Assembly: GCA_964489545.1 (NCBI GenBank)
Contig: CAZAZE010000003.1
Coordinates: forward strand, 249,527-313,526
Origin: an uncultured Bacteroidales bacterium
GTDB taxonomy: Bacteria > Bacteroidota > Bacteroidia > Bacteroidales > JAGOPY01
Reading direction: 5' to 3'
Length of the DNA: 64,000 bases
How positions within the stretch are numbered: position 1 is the first letter of the stretch; each line of letters starts with the position of its first letter. A program made the position numbers and the translations under genes. Positions 12,829 through 56,200 of the stretch are shown piece after piece. A model generated the notes under the pieces. The model did not search any database and had not been told where the DNA came from. It saw only the letters and a program-made list of their open reading frames with translations.

Positions 12829-12922
12829 CTCCGCGGACCTCCGTGCCTTCTCTGTGTGTCTCCGTGTTATTCATTATTTTTTTACACGGAGATACACGGA
12901 GGTTTCACGGAGGACCACGGAG
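12829..12922. repeat. Inverted pair of CTCCGTG tandem-repeat arms with no ORF
   Basis: Left arm 12829-12867 (four CTCCGTG-like units), right arm 12884-12922 (four CACGGAG units); 31/39 complementary around a 16-nt AT-rich loop. Confidence 0.8.
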
Positions 12923-45133: not shown

Positions 45134-46060
45134 GTGAACATTTATCATCATATCGACCTCTTCCAGCCCGTCCGCAACCCTGTGGTGAGCGTGGGCACCT
45201 TCGACGGAGTGCACCGGGGGCACCAGGAGATCTTCCGGATCATGACCGAAGAAGCCAGAAATTGTGATGGAGAAACCGTTGTGGTAACTTTTTACCCGCA
45301 TCCCCGGCTGGTCATTCACCCCGACAGCCGCAACCTCAGGTTCATCAACACCCAGGAGCGCAAGTACGAGATCATCCAGCGCAGCGGGATCGACCACCTC
45401 ATTGTGATGCCGTTCACCCGGGAATTCGCCAACCTATCGGGGGCGGAATTCGTGAAACGCTTCCTGGTCGACCGGATCAGAACGCATAAACTGATCGTGG
45501 GCTACGACCATCATTTCGGTAAAGACCGCCTGGGCAGTTCCATCGAGCTGCGCGGGCTGGGAAAGATGCACGGATTCGACGTCAGGGAGGTGCCCGCATT
45601 GTCCGTCGACGGGATATCGGTCAGCTCCACCAAGGTCAGGGATGCGTTGAACCGGGGCGATATCCGCCTGGCCAACATGCTGCTCGGCTATGATTACTCG
45701 ATCTCTGGGAAAGTGGTTTACGGAAACCGCATCGGCCGCACACTGGGATTTCCCACGGCCAACATCGAGCTGGAAGACGAATACAAGCTGATCTCTGCGG
45801 TCGGCGTCTACGCGTGCAAAGTGGATCACCACGGGGTGATCTACAAAGGGATGGGCAACATCGGCTATCGCCCCACCATCGACAGGGGCAACCTGACCAT
45901 CGAGGTGAACATTTTTGATTTTGACCAGGAGATCTACGGCGACCGCATCATCATCTATTTCCTGGAGCGGATCCGCGACGAAGTGAAATTCGACAACCTG
46001 GCGGCCCTGCGCGAACAACTGATCATCGACCGGGGAAGGGTGCAGGAGATACTACGTTAG
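45134..46060 (+). CDS. ribF: Bifunctional riboflavin kinase/FAD synthetase
   Basis: GTFDGVHRGH, VGYDHHFG, SSTKVR, GRTLGFPTAN, NIGYRPT. Confidence 0.96.
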   Translation: MNIYHHIDLFQPVRNPVVSVGTFDGVHRGHQEIFRIMTEEARNCDGETVVVTFYPHPRLVIHPDSRNLRFINTQERKYEIIQRSGIDHLIVMPFTREFANLSGAEFVKRFLVDRIRTHKLIVGYDHHFGKDRLGSSIELRGLGKMHGFDVREVPALSVDGISVSSTKVRDALNRGDIRLANMLLGYDYSISGKVVYGNRIGRTLGFPTANIELEDEYKLISAVGVYACKVDHHGVIYKGMGNIGYRPTIDRGNLTIEVNIFDFDQEIYGDRIIIYFLERIRDEVKFDNLAALREQLIIDRGRVQEILR

Positions 46061-46113
46061 TTCCAGGGTTTCAGGGTTCCAGGTTCCAGAGTTCCAGGTT
46101 CCAGAGTTCCATA
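46060..46113. repeat. Tandem array of 7 units (GTTCCAGG-like, 7-8 bp), downstream arm of cassette 1
   Basis: gttccagg gtttcagg gttccag gttccaga gttccag gttccaga gttccata. Confidence 0.92.
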
Positions 46114-46120
46114 GTTATTC

Positions 46121-46510
46121 TTATTTGTATTTTCTGCCCTTTAATTCGGTCTCTTTCAAGTATTTGATTAGTTTATTTAAAGACCTGATAATTTCTAAAG
46201 ACTGTTCATTTAACTCCTGGAAACGATTGGTTTCCAAATACAACAGACGTGCTGCAATAATCAGCTGGCAGCGCAATTCTCCACAGGATCCTTTGGCAAT
46301 ATGAAGAAAATTAAGGAATTCTTTATTACCATCTCTTTCAAAACCTTCAGCGATATTAGATGCAATTGAAATAGCTGACTTTCTGACCTGATTGGTTAGT
46401 ACATAATCTTTAGAAAATGGGCCACGGCTAGTCTCATGGTAAATTTGTGTCGTTAAATCAATGGATTTCTGCCACACCTCCATTTCTTCGAATCGTTTAA
46501 ACGTGCTCAT
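46121..46510 (-). CDS. Four helix bundle protein (TIGR02436/PF05635 IVS-protein family)
   Basis: FEEMEVWQKS, LTNQVRKSAISIASNIAEGFER, FLHIAKGSCGELRCQL; visibly AT-rich. Confidence 0.92.
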   Translation of the reverse strand: MSTFKRFEEMEVWQKSIDLTTQIYHETSRGPFSKDYVLTNQVRKSAISIASNIAEGFERDGNKEFLNFLHIAKGSCGELRCQLIIAARLLYLETNRFQELNEQSLEIIRSLNKLIKYLKETELKGRKYK

Positions 46511-46601
46511 AGTGATAAATTATTTTTATCAGTTAATTGCATTTTGACTCAAAAAATACCCGGTTGTTAATAAAAATACCCAGCTTGCTCAGAAAGAAAA
46601 C

Positions 46602-46680
46602 TCTGGAACTATGGAACTGTGGAACTGTGGAACCCTGAAACCCTGGAACCCTGGAACCTGGAACCCTGGAACCCTGGAAC
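46602..46680. repeat. Tandem array of 10 units (CCTGGAAC-like), upstream arm of cassette 1
   Basis: tctggaac tatggaac tgtggaac tgtggaac cctgaaac cctggaac cctggaac ctggaac cctggaac cctggaac; reverse complement of the 46060 array units. Confidence 0.92.
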
Positions 46681-46682
46681 TC

Positions 46683-47150
46683 TTACCTCTTCCTGACAAT
46701 CAGTCCGACCTGCATGATCCCGGCGAGATCGGCCTGCGACATGGCGCTGGAAACTTCGATGCGGCAGATGCCGGGTTCCGTGAAACGAAAGCCCTCCCAG
46801 GCCAGGAAATTCAAATCCCAGAGTGCGCCCATTCCGTTGCCCAGGTTTTTGCCTTCGGCGTCCTTCACCGGGATCCGGAAGCTGTTGTTCCGCGTTTCGC
46901 CCGAAGGAGTTTCCATGTTGAAATAAATGTCCAGGTTCCGGTAAGGGATATCGGTATGGTGGCGTATGGCCACAAGGATGTCGTATTCCGTGTCGATATC
47001 CTGGATTTCCACGTCAAACACTTTGACATCGAAGCGGTTCCACACCAGCCCCCGGGTATCGAGGTGTTCTTCGTAGATCTTTCCCGGGCTGCAGGCGCCC
47101 AGGATCAGCAGGAAAGGTATGATCAGGGATATCGTTCTCATCGTCTTCAT
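46683..47150 (-). CDS. gldH: Gliding motility lipoprotein GldH
   Basis: Lipobox LGAC; IAIRH-like LVAIRHHTDIPYRNL, GNGMGALWD, YRI-like CRIEVSSAM, GIMQVGLIV. Confidence 0.78.
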   Translation of the reverse strand: MKTMRTISLIIPFLLILGACSPGKIYEEHLDTRGLVWNRFDVKVFDVEIQDIDTEYDILVAIRHHTDIPYRNLDIYFNMETPSGETRNNSFRIPVKDAEGKNLGNGMGALWDLNFLAWEGFRFTEPGICRIEVSSAMSQADLAGIMQVGLIVRKR

Positions 47151-47254
47151 CAACAAAAATAATTCAAATCGGTTTAAAAACATGTTCAAGGATTATCCTG
47201 TCACCGGTCATTCTTCCGTTAATCATCCTTATTTTCGCCCTGAAATTGATTTCA

Positions 47255-47878
47255 ATGCCGGCGAAAAAGTATTACGTGGTTTGGAGCGGGCTCAGGCCGG
47301 GGGTGTATGAGACCTGGAAGGAGTGCGAGGCACAGATCCGGGGCGTGGACGGCGCCGTGTACAAATCATTTCCCGACCGGGAAAGCGCCGTTAAGGCCCT
47401 GAATTCGGACTGGAGGGAATATATCGGGAAGAAGAAGGAGGAGCCGGCGAAGAAGGTGCAGCGCGACCGGCAGAGCATACGGGAAAGTATCAGCGTCGAC
47501 GCCGCCTGCAGCGGGAACCCGGGCGTTCTGGAATACCGGGGCGTGGAAACCGCTACCGGCCGGCAGCTGTTCCACCAGGGCCCTTTTCCACTGGGAACTG
47601 TGAACATCGGCGAATTTCTGGCCATCGTGCACGCGCTGGCCTACCTTCAGAAATACGGCAGCAACCTGCCGGTCTATTCCGATTCACGCACTGCCATCAA
47701 ATGGACCCGGGATAAAGCCATCAAGACCAATCTACCGAGAAACAGCAAAACGGAAGCTCTTTTTGACCTGGTCGACCGGGCGATCAACTGGCTGAAAATC
47801 CATGATTATCCCAATCAAATCTTAAAATGGGAAACGGACCGGTGGGGAGAAATCCCGGCGGATTTCGGGAGGAAGTGA
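47255..47878 (+). CDS. rnhA: Ribonuclease HI with an N-terminal hybrid-binding (viroplasmin-like) domain
   Basis: KKYYVVWSG...PGVYETW, SVDAACSGNPG, NIGEFLAIVHAL, YSDS, KWETDRWGEIPADFGRK. Confidence 0.93.
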   Translation: MPAKKYYVVWSGLRPGVYETWKECEAQIRGVDGAVYKSFPDRESAVKALNSDWREYIGKKKEEPAKKVQRDRQSIRESISVDAACSGNPGVLEYRGVETATGRQLFHQGPFPLGTVNIGEFLAIVHALAYLQKYGSNLPVYSDSRTAIKWTRDKAIKTNLPRNSKTEALFDLVDRAINWLKIHDYPNQILKWETDRWGEIPADFGRK

Positions 47879-47879
47879 A

Positions 47880-49235
47880 CTACCCTGTCGCCAGCCTGAC
47901 AGAGATATCAATTTTTATCATGAAATGCAGGCCGATGCCGAGGACGATCCTCAGGAACAGCAGCAGGGCCAGCATCATGGCCAGGTAGCCTATATTGATC
48001 TTCCTGACTTTTTTCACCTTCAGCAGGTTCAGCCTGGGTTTTACCCTGGGGTTGAAGAAGGGGGGAATGACGAGGAACATCATGCTGAAGAACATCAGGG
48101 TTTCGTAAGGATATTCAAATCCCCGGGGCAAGCGGAGCAGCAGCATGATCACGGTTCCGAGGAACCAGGGGATGAGCATCTGCAGTAAGAAAAACGCGGT
48201 CCGGTTTTCCGGCTTGATCCGGTTGAGGGAGTCGGAGGTTTCCAGGATCTTTTCCGCGGAATAATAGCCAATCAGGCCCAGGACAAATAATGAGATGATG
48301 GAGAACATGAATTTGAAGGCCGTATTCATGTACATCCATGCCGCCACATAGCCGAAGCCTTCAGAGGTGATGATGCCGCTGGGCAGCGCGCCGAAGAAAT
48401 GATTGAACAGGTGGAACGAGGTCCAGAGCACGAACAGCTTTTGCAATCCGATCAGCCGGCGGTGCTTGAATACCACCCTGAGGAGAAAAAGACCCAGGAA
48501 AAGGCAGAAAAACGGAGGGATGCCCGTTACGAGCAGGATATTGAACCGGTTCCAGAGCGTAGAATGATCGTTGAATTTCAGGTCATAGTAGTATAAGGTC
48601 GAATCCAGTCCGTAAACGGATGCGACCAGCATACTGGTGAGCCAGTAGAACAGGTAGACGAGGACATAAGTGGCCACGAAGATCAGCAGCGAGTTCACCA
48701 TAATGGTGAGGCTTCGGTAGAATTCGCTGCGCTGGGAGAACAGCGGTATTCTTTTGGCCCGGGCCTCTTCGCTTTCGGCGGAAATGGTGAAAAGTTTCTG
48801 CCCCAGGGAGCGGCCGGATTCCATTTTCCGGTATTCCTTCTGGTGTTTCCGGCGCATCTTGTTCTTGAAGCGTTCCTCCCGGCGGATTTCCCGGCGCTGG
48901 GCTCTTAGTTTGAAGTAATACCGGATGGACTCCGCAATGGATTTTTTTCGCCGGGGGTATGTTTCCTGCCCGCCATCAATGGGAAACTCAACCGGTTTTG
49001 TTTTTTCAGGCGAAGATGGAGTCTGCTTACTGATGGGGATTCCTTCCTGTGGATCAGGCTTGGTCTCGATGGAATGCTCCCTGTGTTCCTGGGGTTTTTC
49101 GTCCGGAAAGTGGATTCCGGGGAACGACGACCGGTGGGTTTTGTATTTATTGCGGCCCAGCAGCCGGTCCCAGAAACTCCTGCGGTGTTTGCGGCGCTTC
49201 GATGAACTGCGGTGGTGTTGGTCGGATCCGGCCAT
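47880..49235 (-). CDS. Hypothetical multi-pass membrane protein with a long basic/charged N-terminal region
   Basis: About 160 aa Arg/Lys/Glu-rich N-terminus, then about 7 hydrophobic segments; no family recognised. Confidence 0.6.
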   Translation of the reverse strand: MAGSDQHHRSSSKRRKHRRSFWDRLLGRNKYKTHRSSFPGIHFPDEKPQEHREHSIETKPDPQEGIPISKQTPSSPEKTKPVEFPIDGGQETYPRRKKSIAESIRYYFKLRAQRREIRREERFKNKMRRKHQKEYRKMESGRSLGQKLFTISAESEEARAKRIPLFSQRSEFYRSLTIMVNSLLIFVATYVLVYLFYWLTSMLVASVYGLDSTLYYYDLKFNDHSTLWNRFNILLVTGIPPFFCLFLGLFLLRVVFKHRRLIGLQKLFVLWTSFHLFNHFFGALPSGIITSEGFGYVAAWMYMNTAFKFMFSIISLFVLGLIGYYSAEKILETSDSLNRIKPENRTAFFLLQMLIPWFLGTVIMLLLRLPRGFEYPYETLMFFSMMFLVIPPFFNPRVKPRLNLLKVKKVRKINIGYLAMMLALLLFLRIVLGIGLHFMIKIDISVRLATG

Positions 49236-49310
49236 ATGATTGTTCTTCGCTATGGTTGATTTAAATTGTTTTACTTTAGCCGCAAACTTCTATCATTATA
49301 CTGGCGAAAA

Positions 49311-49901
49311 ATGAAAAAGTTTATCGAAGAGATCGGTAAAAGTATAAAAAAATACAAGCTGCATGTTCTCAAGGACGTCCTCATCTTTGTGATCATCACG
49401 CTGACCATTCATTATTCTTACAGATACTGGGCCAGGAAACAATACTGGCCCGTGACCTCTGTAATGAACGCATCACATGAATTCATGTCCCAAAAAGTGT
49501 ATGACCAGAGTACATGGCTGATCGATAATTTGCTGGGTATTCCCATAACAGTGGACGAGACGGGGCGTGTGATCTATTTTGAAAACAACGGATTTATCGG
49601 TATCAACCACAGTTGTTCAGGGCTAAAGCCCATCCTGCAGTTTGTCTTGCTGATGCTGCTTTTCCCCGGGCCCTGGAGGCATAAGGCCTGGTTCATCCCA
49701 ATGGGTGTAATGCTGGTTCATTTAACCAATCTATTCAGGATCTCGGGCCTGGCTGTCGTGACGATCACCGTGCCGCAATACTGGGATTTCGCACACGACA
49801 ATATCTTCCGGCCGTTTTTTTACGTGGTGATCTTTTTACTGTGGGTATGGTGGGTGGAGCGATTCAGGAGCAAAGCTCCACGCCACCTTAACGAAGGGTG
49901 A
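49311..49901 (+). CDS. Exosortase/archaeosortase family protein
   Basis: INHSCSGLK (catalytic Cys), TNLFRI (Arg), AHD (His); multi-TM. Confidence 0.82.
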   Translation: MKKFIEEIGKSIKKYKLHVLKDVLIFVIITLTIHYSYRYWARKQYWPVTSVMNASHEFMSQKVYDQSTWLIDNLLGIPITVDETGRVIYFENNGFIGINHSCSGLKPILQFVLLMLLFPGPWRHKAWFIPMGVMLVHLTNLFRISGLAVVTITVPQYWDFAHDNIFRPFFYVVIFLLWVWWVERFRSKAPRHLNEG

Positions 49902-50814
49902 AGGTAGTATGCCCGATGATCGTGTTCTCACAGAAAATATCAACATGATATAAGCCCGCCATCATCTCCTGGTTCGTATATTCTTTCTTCCAATAAAGGC
50001 AAAGATCCATGGACTGGTTTTCATAATTGATCGTCTCCATGATGGAGTATTGCAGCAATTCGCCCTGGTATTCGAAGGCATAATCGTCGAGCCGGCCTTT
50101 GACCAGGATTTCCTGGTCAGGACGGGCGATGCGGATGTACACGTCTTTTCTGCCCGGCGCTGCGATCTCATTCTCACCGATGGTGAAGCATATTTTGACC
50201 TGGTCGGTCCGCTGCACTTTGTCTGTTTCCACTTCCTTATCCCCGCCGCTGCGTGAGCGGATGCCCGTGGCTTTCATGTTGACCGCTCTCAGCTGGGCGG
50301 CAATCTCCACCTTGCCCGATAGAACCTCCCGGTCTTTCTCGATTTCCTCTTTTTCTTTTTTCAGATCTTTCAGATCCTTCCGGATGGCCACGTTTTCCTC
50401 AGTAAGTGCGGCGTTGACCCGGTAGAGGGAATCCATCTGCCGGACGTACCCCTGGGCGATCACCTGGAGCTGGCCCAGTTTCTTCTTCACTTTGTAATAC
50501 TCCCATTCCGTATCGAGCAGCCGGCGGATCTCTTTGGCATTGGCCTGAATCAGGCTGTCCTTGACCATCAGCGTATCCGACAGCCTGCCGTATTCGGTTT
50601 TCACCTTTTCATGCTCCACCAGGAGCGAATCCAGTTCCAGCTGCAATTCGGTCCGTTGTTGTTCTTTCTCGGCCAGGAGGCCTTTCAGGTTGCTCCGGGT
50701 TTGCATCAGGATGATGATGAGCGCGATCACCACGATGGCCAGAACCGCCGCGATGGCGGTCAGGGTGGTGTTTGAGCGGCCGCGTGCCTTGTTATCCGAT
50801 GAGGTTTGTTCCAT
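49888..50814 (-). CDS. Membrane-anchored coiled-coil protein, hypothetical
   Basis: One N-terminal TM, long heptad-rich coiled coil, C-terminal beta domain (VKICFTI, YHVDIF). Confidence 0.65.
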   Translation of the reverse strand: MEQTSSDNKARGRSNTTLTAIAAVLAIVVIALIIILMQTRSNLKGLLAEKEQQRTELQLELDSLLVEHEKVKTEYGRLSDTLMVKDSLIQANAKEIRRLLDTEWEYYKVKKKLGQLQVIAQGYVRQMDSLYRVNAALTEENVAIRKDLKDLKKEKEEIEKDREVLSGKVEIAAQLRAVNMKATGIRSRSGGDKEVETDKVQRTDQVKICFTIGENEIAAPGRKDVYIRIARPDQEILVKGRLDDYAFEYQGELLQYSIMETINYENQSMDLCLYWKKEYTNQEMMAGLYHVDIFCENTIIGHTTFTLR

Positions 50815-50910
50815 AAACCGGTGATTTACTGCAAAAATAGTAAAAAATGCAACCGGATTCCAGTGAATCGGTTGCAAGGGACGAATTGAATAATCGAAAT
50901 GGAGCGGTTC

Positions 50911-52083
50911 TTATTTCAGATGATCTGGTACTATTTCCCGCAACCTCTCCATAGCCATCTCCAGCGTTTGCCGCGGACAGCCGATGTTCACGCGCTGAAA
51001 GCCTTCACCTCCCGGGCCGAAAACCGTGCCATCCACAAAACCCAGTCCGGCTTTATGGATGAGCAGGCGCTTCAGCTCATCTGCCGGCAGATTCCATTCC
51101 CGGAAGTCGAGCCAGAGCATATAGGTGGCTTCCGCCGGACTGACCCTGATCCCAGGGATGTTACGGGAAATGTAATCCATCACGAACCGGACGTTCCCCT
51201 TCAGGTACTCCATCAGTTCTTCAAGCCATGGGTCGCCGTAGCGATACGCCGCCTCCGCAGCAGTGATCCCGAAGATATTTGCGCTCAGGTGCACCCTTTC
51301 TTCTGCAGTTTTGAACCGTTCGCGGAGTTTTTCATCGGAGATGATGATGGACGAGGAATACAGACCGGCCAGGTTGAAGGTCTTGCTCGGGGCGATGCAG
51401 GTAATGGTGTTCCCGGCGATCTCTTCCGACAGCGTGGCGAGCGGGATATGCCGGTGCGGATCCAGCACCAGGTCGCAGTGAATTTCATCGCTCACGATCA
51501 GCACGCCATGCTCTAAGCCCTTCGCTCCGAGCCACTCCAGTTCTTCACGGCTCCAGCAGCGGCTGACGGGATTATGCGGGTTGCAGAGGATCATCATTTT
51601 CGCCCCGTCGCGCATCTTCCGCTCCAGGTCTTCAAAGTCGATGGAATACACCCCGTCGCGCTCCGCCAGCTGGTTCAGGACCAGCTCACGCCCGTTCTTT
51701 TCGACGCAGGTGAAAAACGGGAAATACACCGGCGGCTGGATGATGATCCGGTCGCCGGGCTCGGTGAAGGCCTGCACGATCACGTTCAATCCCGTCACCA
51801 CCCCGGGACTGAACAGGATCCAGTCTTTTTCAATGGCCCAGCCGTGGCGGCGTTTTTGCCAGCCGATGACCGATTCGTAATAGCTTTCCGGGATGATGGA
51901 GTACCCGAACACGGGATGCTCTGCGCGCTGGCGGATGGCTTCTGCAACAAAGGGCGGCACCGCAAAATCCATGTCCGCCACCCACATCGGGATCACATCC
52001 TCCCGGCCGAAATAAGTTTTGCGCAGGTCGAACTTGACGCAATTCGTCCCGGCCCGTTTTATGGGTTGATCAAAGTTGAACAT
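50911..52083 (-). CDS. patB: PatB/MalY family PLP-dependent C-S lyase/aminotransferase
   Basis: True start MFNFDQP at 52083; IPMWVADMDF, LCNPHNP, SDEIHCD, APSKTFNLAG, ATYMLWLD, RVNIGCP. Confidence 0.88.
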   Translation of the reverse strand: MFNFDQPIKRAGTNCVKFDLRKTYFGREDVIPMWVADMDFAVPPFVAEAIRQRAEHPVFGYSIIPESYYESVIGWQKRRHGWAIEKDWILFSPGVVTGLNVIVQAFTEPGDRIIIQPPVYFPFFTCVEKNGRELVLNQLAERDGVYSIDFEDLERKMRDGAKMMILCNPHNPVSRCWSREELEWLGAKGLEHGVLIVSDEIHCDLVLDPHRHIPLATLSEEIAGNTITCIAPSKTFNLAGLYSSSIIISDEKLRERFKTAEERVHLSANIFGITAAEAAYRYGDPWLEELMEYLKGNVRFVMDYISRNIPGIRVSPAEATYMLWLDFREWNLPADELKRLLIHKAGLGFVDGTVFGPGGEGFQRVNIGCPRQTLEMAMERLREIVPDHLK

Positions 52084-52093
52084 ACTGAAAAGA

Positions 52094-52213
52094 GACTGTA
52101 GGACGGTAGGACGGTAGGACTGTAAGACTGTAGGACGGTAAGACTGTAGGACGGTAAGACTGTAGGACTGTAGGACGGTAAGACTGTAGGACTGTAAGAC
52201 TGCTGGACTGCAG
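52094..52213. repeat. Tandem array of 15 x 8 bp (GACKGTAR), upstream arm of cassette 2
   Basis: Units gactgtag, gacggtag, gactgtaa and gacggtaa; the last two are degenerate (gactgctg, gactgcag). Confidence 0.95.
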
Positions 52214-52288
52214 CACTTCAAGGAAAGATATTAACAGACCGGGTATTTTTTGGAATTTACCGGATAAACCGGTATAAAATGTCTTTTT

Positions 52289-52660
52289 ATGAAGTTCACT
52301 AATCATGAAGAATTAGAAGTCTATAAACTGGCTTTTGAATCAGCCATGCGAATTTTTCATCATTCAATAAAATTTCCAAAGGAGGAAAAGTATTCGCTCA
52401 CCGATCAAATGAGGAGGTCTTCCCGATCCGTTTGTGCGAATGTTGCAGAAGCTTTTTACAGAAGAAAATACCCTAAAAACTTTTCCTCCCATTTGTCTGA
52501 TGCAATTGCTGAGGCTGCTGAAACGCGCGTATGGTTAAACTTTTCTTATTCCTGTCACTATTTATCTGAGGACGAAACAAACAATCTTCTTGAAACCTAC
52601 ACCAAAATAATTGGGAAACTGATAGTTATGTATAATCAATCAGACAAATGGCAGATATAA
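52289..52660 (+). CDS. Four helix bundle protein (TIGR02436/PF05635 family)
   Basis: HEELEVYKLA, FPKEEKYSLTDQMRRSSRSVCANVAEA, AETRVWL; visibly AT-rich. Confidence 0.92.
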   Translation: MKFTNHEELEVYKLAFESAMRIFHHSIKFPKEEKYSLTDQMRRSSRSVCANVAEAFYRRKYPKNFSSHLSDAIAEAAETRVWLNFSYSCHYLSEDETNNLLETYTKIIGKLIVMYNQSDKWQI

Positions 52661-52663
52661 ATC

Positions 52664-52719
52664 CTACCGTCCTACAGTCTTACCGTCCTACAGTCCTACT
52701 GTCCTACAGTCCTACTGTC
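52664..52719. repeat. Tandem array of 7 x 8 bp (YTACHGTC), downstream arm of cassette 2
   Basis: ctaccgtc ctacagtc ttaccgtc ctacagtc ctactgtc ctacagtc ctactgtc; five units are exact reverse complements of units in the 52094 array and two differ by one base. Confidence 0.95.
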
Positions 52720-54466
52720 AATGCGCCGGCCCGATCACCTTCAGCTTGTCGCCGGTCTGTTCGACGATGCCGCGCAGGAACCACTCCGGGTAGCCGGGCT
52801 GTTCCACCTTGGGCGCGTGGTACTTGTAGCCTTCGGGGACTTCCGTCGCCGTCTTGATGTTCCCGTCCATGAAACGGGTGAACAGGTGCCCGTAGAACTT
52901 CTTCCAGTCCATGACGGCCGTGTTCCCTGCCGAAACGGAATACTGGGTGAGGTATTCGACGGCTTTCTGCGGGTCGGTCTTGTAGAACTCCTGTGCGGCC
53001 GCATCGATCTGTTTCACGGTCTCGATGAAGTTGGCCTCGTCGGTCTGCTGTTTGACGTGGATTTCCGGGTGGATGTAGGAATAGCGGGTATAGGCCAGGT
53101 TGGAGATCTGGTTAAAGACCCAAAACGCGGCGTCGTCGACGAACTCCATCATGGAGCCATAGCCCGTGGCCATTTTATCCGGCGCCTGGGTCATGGAGCA
53201 GTACATGGGCATAAGGAGGCTGCTGGAAGCGTCGTCGACGGCGAACCAGAAGATGCCGCCGATCGGGTCGGGCAGCCAGGAGCGTGACTGGGCCAGGAAC
53301 CAGAAGCCGGTCTGCTGGGTGGCGGTGGCGCGTTCGTTGCAATAGGTCACGCCGTCGACCTTCCAGGTGAGCGGGCGCCAGCGGTAGGGCTTGCCGAACG
53401 GGCCGGCCCCTTCGTCTTTCGACATATCCAGCGGCGTTTCTTCCAGGTGGTCGCGCATGAAGTTCATCACTTCATGCAGGTCAAGGAGGTGGTCGGGCCT
53501 GATCCAGAGCGGCATGCGGTTGGTGGCGTAGCCGTTGGCGTTCGGGCTGCCGTCGGCGAAGGTCGCCTCGTGTTTGATATGGCCGCTGGCGTAATCAAAG
53601 TATTGTTCCATCTCCTTGTTGATGGACTTGAAGAACGACCATACCCGGATCTCGCAGAAGCGGGCTGCGCTGAAATCCACCGGGGCATATGTGTCGGAGA
53701 AGCTGAACTCGGCGTCTTTGCCGTTGAAATAGCCTTTTTCACGGGCGAAGGTAATGACGTCGTCGGCATAGAAACACTCCACTTCCGGGGCCATCAGCTT
53801 GCTGCGCTGGCTGAACTTAACGGCTTTCTTCTTGTCGCCCACCGGGAAGGTCGTGATGCGCGCCTGGTTGGCGTGGGCGGAAACGTAACCGTCGGGCACT
53901 TTCAGGGCCACCCATACGGCGCCTTTCTGGCCTTCGCCTTTTCCGATCATTTCAAAGATCCATACCTCGTTCTTGTCGGCGATGGAGAACGATTCGCCCG
54001 AGCTGGCGTATCCGTAGTCATTCATGAGCTCAGTGATCACGACCATCGCTTCGCGGGCCGTTTTGGCGCGCTGCAGGGCGATGTACATCAGGCTGCCGTA
54101 GTCCATGATGGCGCCCGGCTGGCTGCCCAGCTCCTGGCGCCCGCCATAGGTCGTTTCCCCGATGGCCACCTGGTGCTCGTTCATATTGCCGATCACGTTG
54201 TAGGTCTCGGCGGCCTGCGGGATCTGGCCAAGGAATTTGCCCGTGTCCCACTCATAGACGTCCAGCATGCTGCCGGCGGGCCATTTCTGGGCGGGCCAGT
54301 GGTACAGCTCGCCGTATAAAGTGTGCGAATCTGCGGCGTAGGTGATCATCACCGAACCGTCTTTCGAAGCGCCTTTGGTCACAAGAAAATTGGTGCAGGC
54401 AAAAGTTTGCATTCCTGCCCAGGAAGTCAAAAGAAAGGCTAAAGCCAGGGCTAGTCTTTTTTTCAT
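52718..54466 (-). CDS. Peptidase family C69 dipeptidase
   Basis: Signal peptide then CTNFLV (N-terminal nucleophile Cys), GNMNEHQVAIGETT, GESFSIAD, HANQARI. Confidence 0.9.
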   Translation of the reverse strand: MKKRLALALAFLLTSWAGMQTFACTNFLVTKGASKDGSVMITYAADSHTLYGELYHWPAQKWPAGSMLDVYEWDTGKFLGQIPQAAETYNVIGNMNEHQVAIGETTYGGRQELGSQPGAIMDYGSLMYIALQRAKTAREAMVVITELMNDYGYASSGESFSIADKNEVWIFEMIGKGEGQKGAVWVALKVPDGYVSAHANQARITTFPVGDKKKAVKFSQRSKLMAPEVECFYADDVITFAREKGYFNGKDAEFSFSDTYAPVDFSAARFCEIRVWSFFKSINKEMEQYFDYASGHIKHEATFADGSPNANGYATNRMPLWIRPDHLLDLHEVMNFMRDHLEETPLDMSKDEGAGPFGKPYRWRPLTWKVDGVTYCNERATATQQTGFWFLAQSRSWLPDPIGGIFWFAVDDASSSLLMPMYCSMTQAPDKMATGYGSMMEFVDDAAFWVFNQISNLAYTRYSYIHPEIHVKQQTDEANFIETVKQIDAAAQEFYKTDPQKAVEYLTQYSVSAGNTAVMDWKKFYGHLFTRFMDGNIKTATEVPEGYKYHAPKVEQPGYPEWFLRGIVEQTGDKLKVIGPAH

Positions 54467-54520
54467 TTTTATCTGATTTTAATAGTTGATTTGATGTAAT
54501 GAGGTTTGCAAAAATAAAAT

Positions 54521-54560
54521 AATCCGTGATAAATCTGTGAAAATCTGAGTAATCTGTGGC
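54521..54560. repeat. Four 10-bp tandem units (AATCYGWG core), single arm
   Basis: aatccgtgat aaatctgtga aaatctgagt aatctgtggc. Confidence 0.65.
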
Positions 54561-54589
54561 AATAACCCAGTTAAAACCCTAAGTCAGGA

Positions 54590-56200
54590 TTAGAAATCGT
54601 AATAAATATTCCTCAGCCCGGTTTTCAGGCCGAAATACAGGTAATGCATTTGTTTGTCCCACTGGGCATTATTTTCATTGCGGATGGTGACCCCGGCTTC
54701 GAGGCGCATATTGGTCCTGCGGTTCAGCAGGTAGGCCACGTTGAGGTCGCCGATGAACAGCTTGGTTTTGAGGCCCTGCCCGATTTCGTTCCCGTATTCG
54801 CTGATGCGCTGATCATAAGGGATGAAGATGTCTTTTCCGTAATCCAGTCCGGCGGTATCGATCCCGTACATCGCGAAGTTCAGTTTGAAGCTGATCATCC
54901 AGTTGTTCCGGGTATAGGACGACATCAGGATAAATTCCCGGAAATTGGCTCCTAAGGGGTGGGCCAGCGGTTGATTGTAGTGCCCGTAGGCTTCGGTGGT
55001 GTTCGCGTAAGAGTAAGTGTACGGCCGTGCCTGGTTGAACTCAAAACGGGCGTTCAAAGCCGGTACATCGAAGAGGTTCCATCCGGCGACGCCCAGCTGG
55101 TAGCCGAATTTGTTGCCCCACCATCCGGTATTCGCCGTGACCTCATCCAGTTTGAATTCATCCAGGAATACCTGGCCGTAAACATTGAGGAATCTGTTGA
55201 TCCGCAGGTTGAACGTAGCCCCCATTACGCTGTTGTCAGGCGATCCGAAGGATGACTCTATCGGCCGCATCAGGAAAATGACGGGATTCAGGTACTGGAA
55301 TTCGAAGCCGCGATAACCGGCCGAGTCGGCATTTTCCCATACGATCGCATCGAAAAGGCCGATGGTCAGCCTTTTCCACAGCATAATCTGCAGGTAGTGC
55401 ATGGTCGACCACTTGCGGTCGTTGCCAAAACCGACCGTTGAAGTCACGCTGCGGTCGATGAACTGATTGTACAATACCGTGTATTTGACTTTTTTGAAAT
55501 TGGCGGTTAAAGCGACGTAGGGATAATTGAAAGAGGCATCCGACAGGATCATCGAGCGGTAGCCGTCGCCGATGAAGTTTTTGCCATATCCCAGGGTCAT
55601 ATTGATGTATTTCACCGGAGTATAGGTCAGATAACCGCTGCTGTACAAATAATCATATCCTTCTTCCTTAAAGGGTTTTGTGCCGCCCTGTCCGGGGACC
55701 ACCCCGGTCTGCCGGACCATGGAGTCGGGCCAGGAGGCGAACACCGCCTGGTTCTCGTACAGTTCCGCGTTAAAAAAGACCTTGTTCAGCAGCGCTCCCG
55801 TTACCGTAAAGCCCCGCGTGTTGGTCCACGCGAACTTTGGTTCCTTCAGATCATATCCTCCCGAAAAATTAAACACGGGATCCGCGGTGATCCAGAAATC
55901 CTTTGTCCGGTAACGGATCAGGCTTTCATTGAATATTTTCCGGTACACCCAGGTGTTTTTACGTCCTTCCTTCCGGAACACCGTGGGGTAGATCACGCTG
56001 TCGATGTGGTAAGCGCTGTCCAGTTCCTGCATCAAAACGGGTTTCATGGACGACAGAAACGAAGCATTTTCCTGCTGGTACTTTTGGGTGAGCAGGTTGT
56101 AGAAATGGTTGTCCAGGGGGATGAACTGGGCAACACTAATGAATGGGAGGATTGCCAGCGCAATGATTCCCAGGCGAATATTAGGGAATTTAATTTTCAA
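54590..56200 (-). CDS. Outer-membrane protein resembling RemB/Wzi-type barrels
   Basis: Signal peptide; LGYGKNFIGDGYRSMILSD, YLNPVIF, YGQVFLDEF, YGHYNQPLAHPLGANFRE; C-terminal aromatic residue. Confidence 0.7.
   Translation of the reverse strand: MKIKFPNIRLGIIALAILPFISVAQFIPLDNHFYNLLTQKYQQENASFLSSMKPVLMQELDSAYHIDSVIYPTVFRKEGRKNTWVYRKIFNESLIRYRTKDFWITADPVFNFSGGYDLKEPKFAWTNTRGFTVTGALLNKVFFNAELYENQAVFASWPDSMVRQTGVVPGQGGTKPFKEEGYDYLYSSGYLTYTPVKYINMTLGYGKNFIGDGYRSMILSDASFNYPYVALTANFKKVKYTVLYNQFIDRSVTSTVGFGNDRKWSTMHYLQIMLWKRLTIGLFDAIVWENADSAGYRGFEFQYLNPVIFLMRPIESSFGSPDNSVMGATFNLRINRFLNVYGQVFLDEFKLDEVTANTGWWGNKFGYQLGVAGWNLFDVPALNARFEFNQARPYTYSYANTTEAYGHYNQPLAHPLGANFREFILMSSYTRNNWMISFKLNFAMYGIDTAGLDYGKDIFIPYDQRISEYGNEIGQGLKTKLFIGDLNVAYLLNRRTNMRLEAGVTIRNENNAQWDKQMHYLYFGLKTGLRNIYYDF

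Follow-up and report, generated by a model that had tools for sequence, protein, structure and literature searches.

A four-helix-bundle gene between inverted tandem-octamer arrays in the dipeptidase–patB spacer of an uncultured Bacteroidales bacterium: a candidate intervening-sequence-like hairpin cassette outside rRNA

The intervening sequences (IVSs) of 23S rRNA in Leptospira, Coxiella burnetii and Brucella carry a small open reading frame (ORF) for a PF05635 (S23p-type) protein in the loop of a long terminal stem. That of Coxiella, 428 nt in length, has an S23p ORF and a stem of 28 bp; RNase III cleaves it, and its GC content is below that of the genome (PMC4990558). A separate body of work concerns intergenic long simple-sequence repeats (LSSRs), such as GGGAATC in Xanthomonas and GGGGAYT in Nostoc (Rehm et al. 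2015), of which the Xanthomonas heptamers form 70–75 convergent, that is inverted, pairs and lie on average 28 nt from the upstream ORF (PMC4692102). The TAACTGA repeats of Beggiatoaceae, Cyanobacteria and Bacteroidetes have been proposed to bind a regulator (MacGregor 2015, PMC4679880). Finally, PF05635 is the commonest accessory domain beside the reverse transcriptases of diversity-generating retroelements (DGRs) (PMC10053308). Here we examine a stretch of 64,000 nt from an uncultured Bacteroidales bacterium (GCA_964489545.1, contig CAZAZE010000003.1; the window), in which an insert that we call cassette 2 has a PF05635 gene between two inverted arrays of a tandem octamer, in the spacer between the genes for a C69-family dipeptidase and a PatB-family C-S lyase (patB). 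Its parts are as follows, with positions counted over the whole window and arrays detected with Tandem Repeats Finder (TRF).

50911–52083, minus strand: host gene for the PatB-family C-S lyase (patB; TIGR04350, E 2e-157), with its ATG at 52081–52083.
52094–52210, plus strand: left arm of cassette 2, lying 5' of the ORF and made up of 14.6 tandem GACKGTAR-type octamers, consensus GACTGTAG (TRF).
52211–52288, plus strand: AT-rich leader with a conserved motif, TATTAACA at 52229–52236, GGGTATTTTTTGG at 52241–52253 and ACCGGATAAACCGGT at 52259–52273.
52289–52660, plus strand: ORF of 123 aa for a four-helix-bundle protein of PF05635/TIGR02436, the 23S-rRNA-IVS protein family, distantly Avd-like.
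52662–52719, plus strand: right arm, lying 3' of the ORF and made up of 7.2 tandem CCTACMGT-type octamers, consensus TCCTACAG (TRF and inverted-repeat search).
52718–54466, minus strand: host gene for the C69-family dipeptidase (PF03577, E 2e-69), with its TGA at 52718–52720.

The passenger ORF is on the plus strand, and the dipeptidase and patB genes are both on the minus strand. Cassette 2 is 627 nt long and occupies the dipeptidase–patB spacer from the stop codon up to the last 10 nt ahead of the ATG, at a place where relatives have a tight gene pair: the dipeptidase TGA sits under the last unit of the right array, and 10 nt (52084–52093) separate the patB ATG from the left array. A preliminary description of this DNA had put forward this same geometry, with an antisense ORF, one array over the dipeptidase TGA and 10 nt left to the patB ATG, and both TRF and the ORF list bear it out in every detail. 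The interior of the cassette has a GC content of 36%, against 57–59% in the flanking genes and 53% in the window. Written out, the left-arm units are GACTGTAG, GACGGTAG, GACTGTAA and GACGGTAA, purine-rich on the sense strand of the ORF, and the right arm is their reverse complement; the inverted-repeat search found the arms mutually reverse-complementary at 91% over 58 nt, in several registers. The octamer is confined to cassette 2 within the window: a degenerate two-unit pattern, GACKGTARGACKGTAR, with at most one mismatch, has 18 matches in the 64 kb, all of them in the two arrays, and none in 100 shuffles. That the arms would pair, as had been suggested from the letters, agrees with the folding predictions, in which a stem of about 58 bp closes the entire cassette in both minimum free energy (MFE) and centroid structures and on either strand, with MFEs of −225 and −230 kcal/mol and z-scores of −11 and −12. 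Formation of the predicted stem does not depend on the orientation of the interior. A known RNA family was considered for cassette 2 and rejected, as Rfam gave no match at E ≤ 1, and no rRNA, over 45500–55000 of the window.

The arrays are open on one strand and give rise to spurious ORFs and N-terminal extensions with repeating peptides such as LTVLQSYS; those in the window lie at 50911–52221 (minus), 52070–52306 (minus), 52648–52857 (plus) and 46611–47162 (plus). They are a likely origin of mis-annotated starts, as in the 436-aa "patB" ORF from 52221. Since the TIGR04350 alignment begins at residue 4 of the product that starts from the ATG at 52083, and orthologues begin with MF(S/N)FD, we take the longer patB ORF from the TTG at 52221 to be spurious, reading through the array. 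The sense-strand unit (GACTGTAG/TAA) places a stop codon in every frame for incoming translation in cassette 2, a property that we rejected as a general one: among 26 array sides abutting a stop codon, a stop triplet is present on the incoming strand in 10 and on the other strand also in 10. Elsewhere in the window, at 12849–12901, two adjacent 10-nt repeat pairs (TCTCCGTGTG and TACACGGAGA, 1.9 copies each) are mutually reverse-complementary and form a small hairpin-like structure.

When set beside the rRNA IVSs, cassette 2 shares the PF05635 protein and the layout, in which a long terminal stem has a small ORF in its loop. It is also similar in size (627 nt versus 428 nt in Coxiella), in a GC content below that of the host, and in a patchy distribution that suggests horizontal spread (PMC4990558). 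It differs in lying between protein-coding genes rather than in helix 9, 25 or 45 of 23S rRNA, and in having as arms variable-copy tandem arrays of a 7–9-nt unit, whereas the Coxiella stem is described only as a 28-bp terminal inverted repeat (PMC4990558). The arms of such cassettes in turn resemble LSSRs and short tandemly repeated repetitive (STRR) sequences in unit size, in their intergenic site near the 3' end of an upstream ORF and in length variation between relatives; convergent pairs are frequent in both, and the mechanism of spread is known for neither. Cassette 2 itself has a head-to-tail period of 8, several copies, a position that is intergenic save for the stop-codon overlap, and an arm placed over the dipeptidase stop, all as in LSSRs and STRRs. 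What sets the cassettes apart from the LSSR reports is that a four-helix-bundle gene is a regular passenger and that the unit tracks the protein lineage. A text search of the two papers on these repeats found no mention of a PF05635-type gene between inverted repeat pairs (PMC4692102; PMC4679880).

REPIN–RAYT systems, MITEs (miniature inverted-repeat transposable elements) and insertion sequences offer a third comparison, in that one gene has a short repeat on either side of it in inverted copies. As to dispersal of that repeat in the same genome, solo arrays with a cassette's unit are enriched in the cassette's own locus, but over the 64-kb window the octamer is confined to cassette 2. Short-loop hairpins without an ORF exist as well. 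We found two such inverted array pairs, with loops of 8–10 nt, between the stops of convergent genes in related loci (L006, 12168–12234, and L074, 11981–12046; fetched loci carry L numbers throughout). In L074 the octamers of the pair belong to the GACGGGAR/CTTACAGT family, as do those of cassette 2. Both pairs could be "empty" hairpins or terminator-like elements. Unlike the REPIN–RAYT and MITE systems, the cassette encodes a PF05635 protein, with no HUH/Y1 (RAYT) or other known transposase, and has tandem arrays in place of single palindromes, with no visible target-site duplication. The likeness to Avd of DGRs consists of distant homology and a four-helix bundle that forms pentamers; the cassette 2 protein scores well under the equivalog cut-off. 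Membership in a DGR was rejected on that score (26.9 versus 80 bits) and because no reverse transcriptase is among the genes annotated around the cassettes (44–56 kb, save 47.9–49.2 kb). The parts were known before, namely the S23p/IVS protein family and the intergenic heptamer and octamer repeats, inverted pairs included. A hairpin cassette outside rRNA with tandem-array arms is a widespread and apparently undescribed kind of insert; we found no paper tying PF05635, TIGR02436 or S23p genes to short tandem arrays in a literature covered without most subscription journals.

The passenger protein matches PF05635 with E 1.7e-29 (102.6 bits, cut-off 33.8) and, in NCBIfam, TIGR02436 ("four helix bundle protein") with E 6e-26 (90.7 bits, cut-off 24). 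Its likeness to Avd is weak but real, with 24.9 bits and E 3e-5 for PF22296 (cut-off 40) and 26.9 bits and E 4.5e-6 for the Avd equivalog NF033474, far under the cut-off of 80; PF05635 and bAvd are the only Pfam families that it matches. Solved relatives are PDB 2GSC (XCC0516) and 2RLD (an uncharacterised protein), each deposited with five chains, and XCC0516 has been described as a homopentameric toroid (PMC4990558). An exact-sequence look-up returned no identical sequence on record. The ORF is under purifying selection (dN 0.021 and dS 0.215 against its homologue in L001, dN/dS about 0.1). Two further assignments were rejected: a defence system, with no PADLOC match at E ≤ 0.1, and a phage origin, since tblastn matched none of 50,697 phage records and the cassette 2 query had no hit in IMG/VR.

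The association of gene and arrays extends far beyond this window. A metagenome scan with the cassette 2 protein yielded 80 loci, and a purpose-built hidden Markov model applied to all fetched loci gave 99 family ORFs; the model was needed since a first tblastn screen had missed divergent members such as those of L005 and L006. A tandem array with a period of 6–10 nt lies within 300 nt of 87 of these 99 ORFs. As background we used 811 kb of Bacteroidales loci that had been fetched via the dipeptidase and are hence unbiased for the four-helix gene, and there the density is about 0.11 arrays per kb. Among the 63 ORFs with at least 200 nt on both sides, arrays are two-sided in 35, one-sided in 18 and absent in 10, and the units are clearly reverse-complementary in 29 of the 35 two-sided cases. 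Periods among the cassettes are 7 nt (34 cases), 8 nt (17), 9 nt (1) and 10 nt (1), and copy numbers span 3 to 73. The unit varies by cassette (GAGACGGA, GAGACTGA, GACGAGG, TAGGTAG and others), with the arms within one cassette remaining complementary. On the sense strand of the ORF, the unit on the 5' side is purine-rich, with a mean of 0.67 and values of at least 0.7 in 53 of 87 and at most 0.3 in 4 of 87.

On finished plasmids of cultured cyanobacteria, homologues with about 50% identity stand between arrays of (AGCAGGGG)n and (CCCCTGCT)n; the carriers are Nostoc punctiforme PCC 73102 (pNPUN02), N. flagelliforme, Tolypothrix and Leptolyngbya. An exception is plasmid pOSC7112.02 of Oscillatoria nigro-viridis PCC 7112 (L164), in which purine-rich arrays of the GGGAGAGT type stand on both sides in direct, not inverted, orientation. 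In Xanthomonas campestris (GCA_035012225.1; L170, 1380–1920), the accB–accC spacer holds, in sense, a gene for a close homologue of XCC0516 that has about 86% identity to the crystallised protein. One arm, behind the accB stop, consists of GGGAATC units, the other of degenerate GATTCCC-type units that reach the accC ATG, and the four-helix ORF appears to start at a GTG within the array. The arms of the Xanthomonas XCC0516 cassette are the GGGAATC repeats of Rehm et al. Since finished isolate replicons of cyanobacteria and Xanthomonas show the same build, this build is not an assembly artefact; the cassette architecture is real and general for the PF05635 family in Bacteroidota, Cyanobacteriota and Xanthomonas.

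Placement relative to host genes is strongly biased. In 46 of 53 protein clusters the ORF shares its strand with the upstream gene and so lies in sense behind the host stop codon (p 4e-8), and the median gap from host stop codon to cassette edge is 2.5 nt. Where both neighbours are known, 16 cassettes lie between convergent genes, 13 are co-directional in sense and 3, plus cassette 2, co-directional in antisense; none lies between divergent genes. Antisense cassette 2 is therefore a minority state of the class. The preliminary description had read its antisense placement as a design that minimises disruption, looping out the ORF and bringing the dipeptidase stop close to the patB start. The first part of this idea is not supported, given the sense orientation in 46 of 53 clusters and in L001, together with pairing that is independent of orientation. 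For the second part, we know of no benefit that stop–start proximity would bring to a bacterial cistron with its own initiation. What is documented for stems of this kind is that RNase III cuts the intervening sequences of rRNA (PMC4990558). The earlier interpretation is partly supported, namely in its geometry, arm pairing, array-length variation and cassette-free junction.

Comparison of the dipeptidase–patB junction across relatives shows it in several states. Scanning genomes with the dipeptidase as query yielded 77 loci, all in metagenome-assembled genomes of Bacteroidales, in 6 of which dipeptidase followed by patB is kept, with a four-helix ORF in none of the 6. An empty junction, which the earlier reader had proposed to look for in relatives, was found: the spacer is absent altogether in L005 and comprises 76 nt without repeats in L004. 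In L003, eight solo units of the cassette 2 octamer family (GACGGGAG/GACTGTAG) fill the spacer from stop to ATG, L074 has two such units at the junction, and L002, which lacks patB, has three to four after the dipeptidase. L007 has nine GATTTGGG units behind the dipeptidase, and L006 has heptamers there. At least 10 relatives carry an array directly behind the dipeptidase stop (L003, L006, L007, L008, L009, L011, L012, L013, L046 and L071), and the units are unrelated (AGGACGGG, AGTCGGC, GATTTGGG, TACCAGG, ATCGAAA, GAAATCT, AGCAGGG, AGAAATC and AAGTTAT): at this place the array site is conserved, and the repeat sequence is not. A second site lies upstream of the dipeptidase ATG, where L005 (5413–5999) and L006 (5367–5985) have another four-helix-bundle cassette with TTTAACAA octamer arms, its array ending 3 nt from the ATG. 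At the same site, L008, L010 and L028 have a solo array of the TTTAACCA type, and the window has no such array. Two orthologous sites, after the dipeptidase stop and before its ATG, thus each show the three states of no array, a solo array and a full cassette. Two observations may be added here. The region upstream of the dipeptidase ATG in the window (54467–54589) holds just a 10–11-nt repeat of the CACAGATT type, at 54521–54558. In L004 (36–300), arms of the GACTGTAA family surround about 170 nt without a four-helix-bundle ORF, which could be a decayed cassette or one with another passenger.

The filled junction occurs in contigs with close homologues of the cassette 2 protein (L001, L169, L167 and L168). 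L169 has the window's orientation, with the 3' arm of the ORF abutting the dipeptidase stop, and so do L167 and L168, whose proteins are 82% identical in amino acids to that of the window. The interior of L001 is identical to that of L169 over 342 of 342 nt, and it is flipped into sense, so that its 3' arm abuts the patB ATG. L001 and L169 agree fully in the eight units beside the ORF stop and differ in the outer ones, which fits a crossover inside the arms and also an assembler taking the wrong path through a collapsed inverted repeat. The comparison therefore suggests, and does not prove, inversion of the interior at this locus. Both orientations occur in different contigs at a second locus too, that of an LTD/Por_Secre_tail gene, with mfd on the other side in L161. 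Array length varies between relatives, in line with the slippage-prone arrays envisaged in the preliminary description: the patB-side arm has 14.6 units in the window and 21.6 in L001, and the dipeptidase-side arm has 7.2 in the window, about 11.5 in L169 and about 8 in L167.

How an antisense ORF would be expressed leads to the leader. Listed side by side, the Bacteroidales copies share a consensus of TATTAACA, 4–6 nt, GGGTAT(A/T)TTT, about 7 nt and CGGATWAAC, and the leader of cassette 2 is 92% identical to that of L001. No sigma-70 consensus promoter for either patB or the ORF was found in 51900–52900. The search gave no more than near matches to the Bacteroidetes −7 box (TAnnTTTG), which do not establish a promoter. 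The leader (52211–52288) is possibly the cassette's own promoter or a 5' untranslated region. The antisense state is common to three lineages at the dipeptidase–patB locus, with an intact and constrained ORF, and this implies expression from the cassette's own leader. In L161 (2150–2235) and L160 (600–720), a stretch like the cassette leader (TTATCAACA..GGGTATATTTT..CCGATTAATG) stands upstream of the host LTD/Por_Secre_tail gene. It lies outside the array and is directed toward the host gene, and it may represent a common promoter or leader type of the clade or a leftover cassette leader.

The window holds a second copy, in the canonical state of the class.

46059–46680, minus strand: cassette 1, RGTTCCAG-type octamer arrays at 46059–46116 and 46599–46680 around a four-helix-bundle ORF.
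46121–46510, minus strand: cassette 1 ORF of 129 aa, matching the cassette 2 protein in phmmer with 4e-12.

Cassette 1 fills the gap between the ribF stop (46058–46060) and the gldH stop (46683), with both arms abutting stop codons, and is in sense directly behind gldH and convergent with ribF. In Pfam, the neighbours of both cassettes include a semialdehyde dehydrogenase, FAD synthetase/riboflavin kinase (ribF), GldH and RNase H, and further PatB, the dipeptidase, an exosortase-like protein and two ORFs that match no Pfam family.

Proteins 70–82% identical to that of cassette 2 carry octamers of the GGACKGTA type in at least four gene contexts.

Context 1: dipeptidase/patB, in the window, L001, L169 and L167/L168.
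Context 2: glmS-like gene (SIS domain)/S41 peptidase, in L079 and L159.
Context 3: LTD gene/mfd, in L160, L161 and two further contigs.
Context 4: a fourth, unnamed pair of flanking genes, in L080/L081.

Protein pairs at least 65% identical have the period in common in 91% and the unit in 49% of cases, and among more distant pairs the unit is common to 1–3%. The synonymous divergence of the interior is low: against L001, dS is 0.215 for the ORF and 1.13 for patB (Fisher p 3e-9), and a comparison with the dipeptidase gives 0.188 for the ORF versus 0.617 (p 3e-4). Values so far under those of both host flanks point either to exchange of the interior at a time when the hosts had already diverged or to nucleotide-level constraint on it.

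On balance we lean toward the view that cassette 2 is an IVS-like and largely selfish hairpin cassette outside rRNA, whose arms pair, slip and recombine. It would be a short AT-rich insert encoding a four-helix-bundle protein of the pentamer type, with the gene in the loop of a long stem and the two arms of the stem formed by inverted arrays of a lineage-specific 8-nt repeat. Because the arms consist of repeats, length changes, easy inversion and exchange from copy to copy would all follow: the arms would change in length through slippage or unequal exchange, would permit inversion of the interior (antisense in the window, sense in L001) and would supply the homology by which copies exchange or convert one another. 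In any transcript that runs across the cassette they would pair into a duplex of about 58 bp, whichever way the interior points. This duplex might then be handled like an rRNA intervening sequence, via RNase III cleavage, or act as an insulator or terminator, and the host cistrons would stay usable. Cleavage or termination at the duplex is our most economical guess for how cassettes might be tolerated in operon spacers such as accB–accC. The antisense ORF of cassette 2 would have to be expressed from its own leader.

Several observations weigh against such a cassette. In the unbiased related loci, 73 of 86 short arrays are solo, not beside a four-helix gene, so the arrays have a life of their own; recombination between inverted arms accounts for inversion and not for these solo arrays. 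No target-site duplication is visible at either cassette when the flanks are compared (..CTGAAAAGA / AATGCGCC.. for cassette 2 and ..CTACGTT / CTCTTACC.. for cassette 1, with no direct repeat in common), and no recombinase, transposase or reverse transcriptase is among the genes annotated at 44–56 kb, save 47.9–49.2 kb. The route of spread is thus left unexplained. The low dS could come partly from nucleotide-level constraint in an AT-rich structured insert. As to inversion, L001, the sole flipped contig, comes from a short-read metagenome assembly, in which a collapsed inverted repeat can be traversed wrongly, and four other contigs of the dipeptidase–patB locus have the window's orientation. 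Colonisation of new sites, the origin of the solo arrays and the role of the protein are not explained by the selfish hairpin cassette.

A broader proposal, which we advance tentatively and hold to be doubtful, is that PF05635 four-helix-bundle proteins are the missing partner of those intergenic tandem repeats of 7–9 nt that have long lacked an explanation in Bacteroidota, Cyanobacteria, Xanthomonas and other groups. A given protein lineage would be responsible for maintaining, spreading or reading arrays of one unit, a gene flanked by inverted arrays would be a "master" copy, the solo arrays behind host stops would be its offspring or targets, and the rRNA IVSs would be a special case.

It seems to us rather unlikely that the protein is a regulator with its own binding sites. 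A four-helix oligomer would here bind the 7–9-nt units, as RNA or DNA, in the way that ring proteins read spaced repeats; the gene would lie between its own sites for autoregulation or insulation, same-unit solo arrays would be its targets, and the whole would be a domesticated post-transcriptional or termination module and not a parasite. Several points speak for it: in a separate analysis of positions (n = 90 arrays), 28% abut the stop codon of a long ORF against 2.7% of random positions, a roughly 10-fold enrichment, and the solo arrays that abut a stop are purine-rich on the sense strand of that gene in 17 of 20, a polarity consistent with that of the 5' arms (mean 0.67). Solo arrays with the cassette's unit are enriched eight-fold in the same locus (10 of 121 pairs, compared with 1.05% between loci, p 9e-7), the protein lineage is tracked by both period and unit, and the 10 or more relatives with an array behind the dipeptidase stop retain it though the units differ. 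The five chains in 2GSC and 2RLD and the regulator binding proposed for the TAACTGA repeats (MacGregor 2015, PMC4679880) also fit. However, co-inheritance of ORF and arms accounts for the link between unit and protein without any recognition, and units are unrelated under 65% protein identity. The 13.7-kb locus L006 has at least eight unit families but two four-helix genes, and the low GC content, the patchy presence at orthologous sites and the several insertion loci resemble a mobile insert.

Still less probable, in our judgement, is a retroelement-like origin, in which the protein would be an Avd-like cofactor of a reverse transcriptase encoded elsewhere, the units would come from reiterated copying of a short template, and spread via an RNA intermediate would explain the sense bias behind host genes (46 of 53 clusters). 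The weak but real Avd likeness, the unit length fixed within a lineage and the frequency of PF05635 beside DGR reverse transcriptases (PMC10053308) are what such an origin would lead one to expect, but the annotated genes around the cassettes include no reverse transcriptase over the interval given above, the Avd equivalog score lies far under its cut-off, the unit variants are not adenine-specific, viral or phage relatives were not found in phage records or IMG/VR, and the production of two inverted arms is left without explanation. Coincidence or artefact, that is, ordinary slippage-prone repeats or assembly errors with an ORF between them by chance, is scarcely credible: short arrays are common in related genomes without such an ORF near, and many homologue contigs are short and end in arrays, but this reading is already contradicted by the enrichment figures (87 of 99 ORFs against 0.11 arrays per kb), by reverse-complementary arms in 29 of 35 two-sided cases and by the same build in finished isolate replicons of two other phyla.

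Should PF05635 proteins indeed be the partner of these repeats, two loose ends would be joined, namely the S23p/four-helix family, which has solved structures and many copies per genome and no known function, and the heptamer and octamer intergenic repeats of several phyla, which have no known origin. If the link holds, it would give a testable handle on both, with the Xanthomonas accB–XCC0516–accC locus and the Nostoc plasmids as tractable systems. For the genomes that carry them, the cassettes break short-read assemblies, and those in operon spacers may cut or insulate transcripts.

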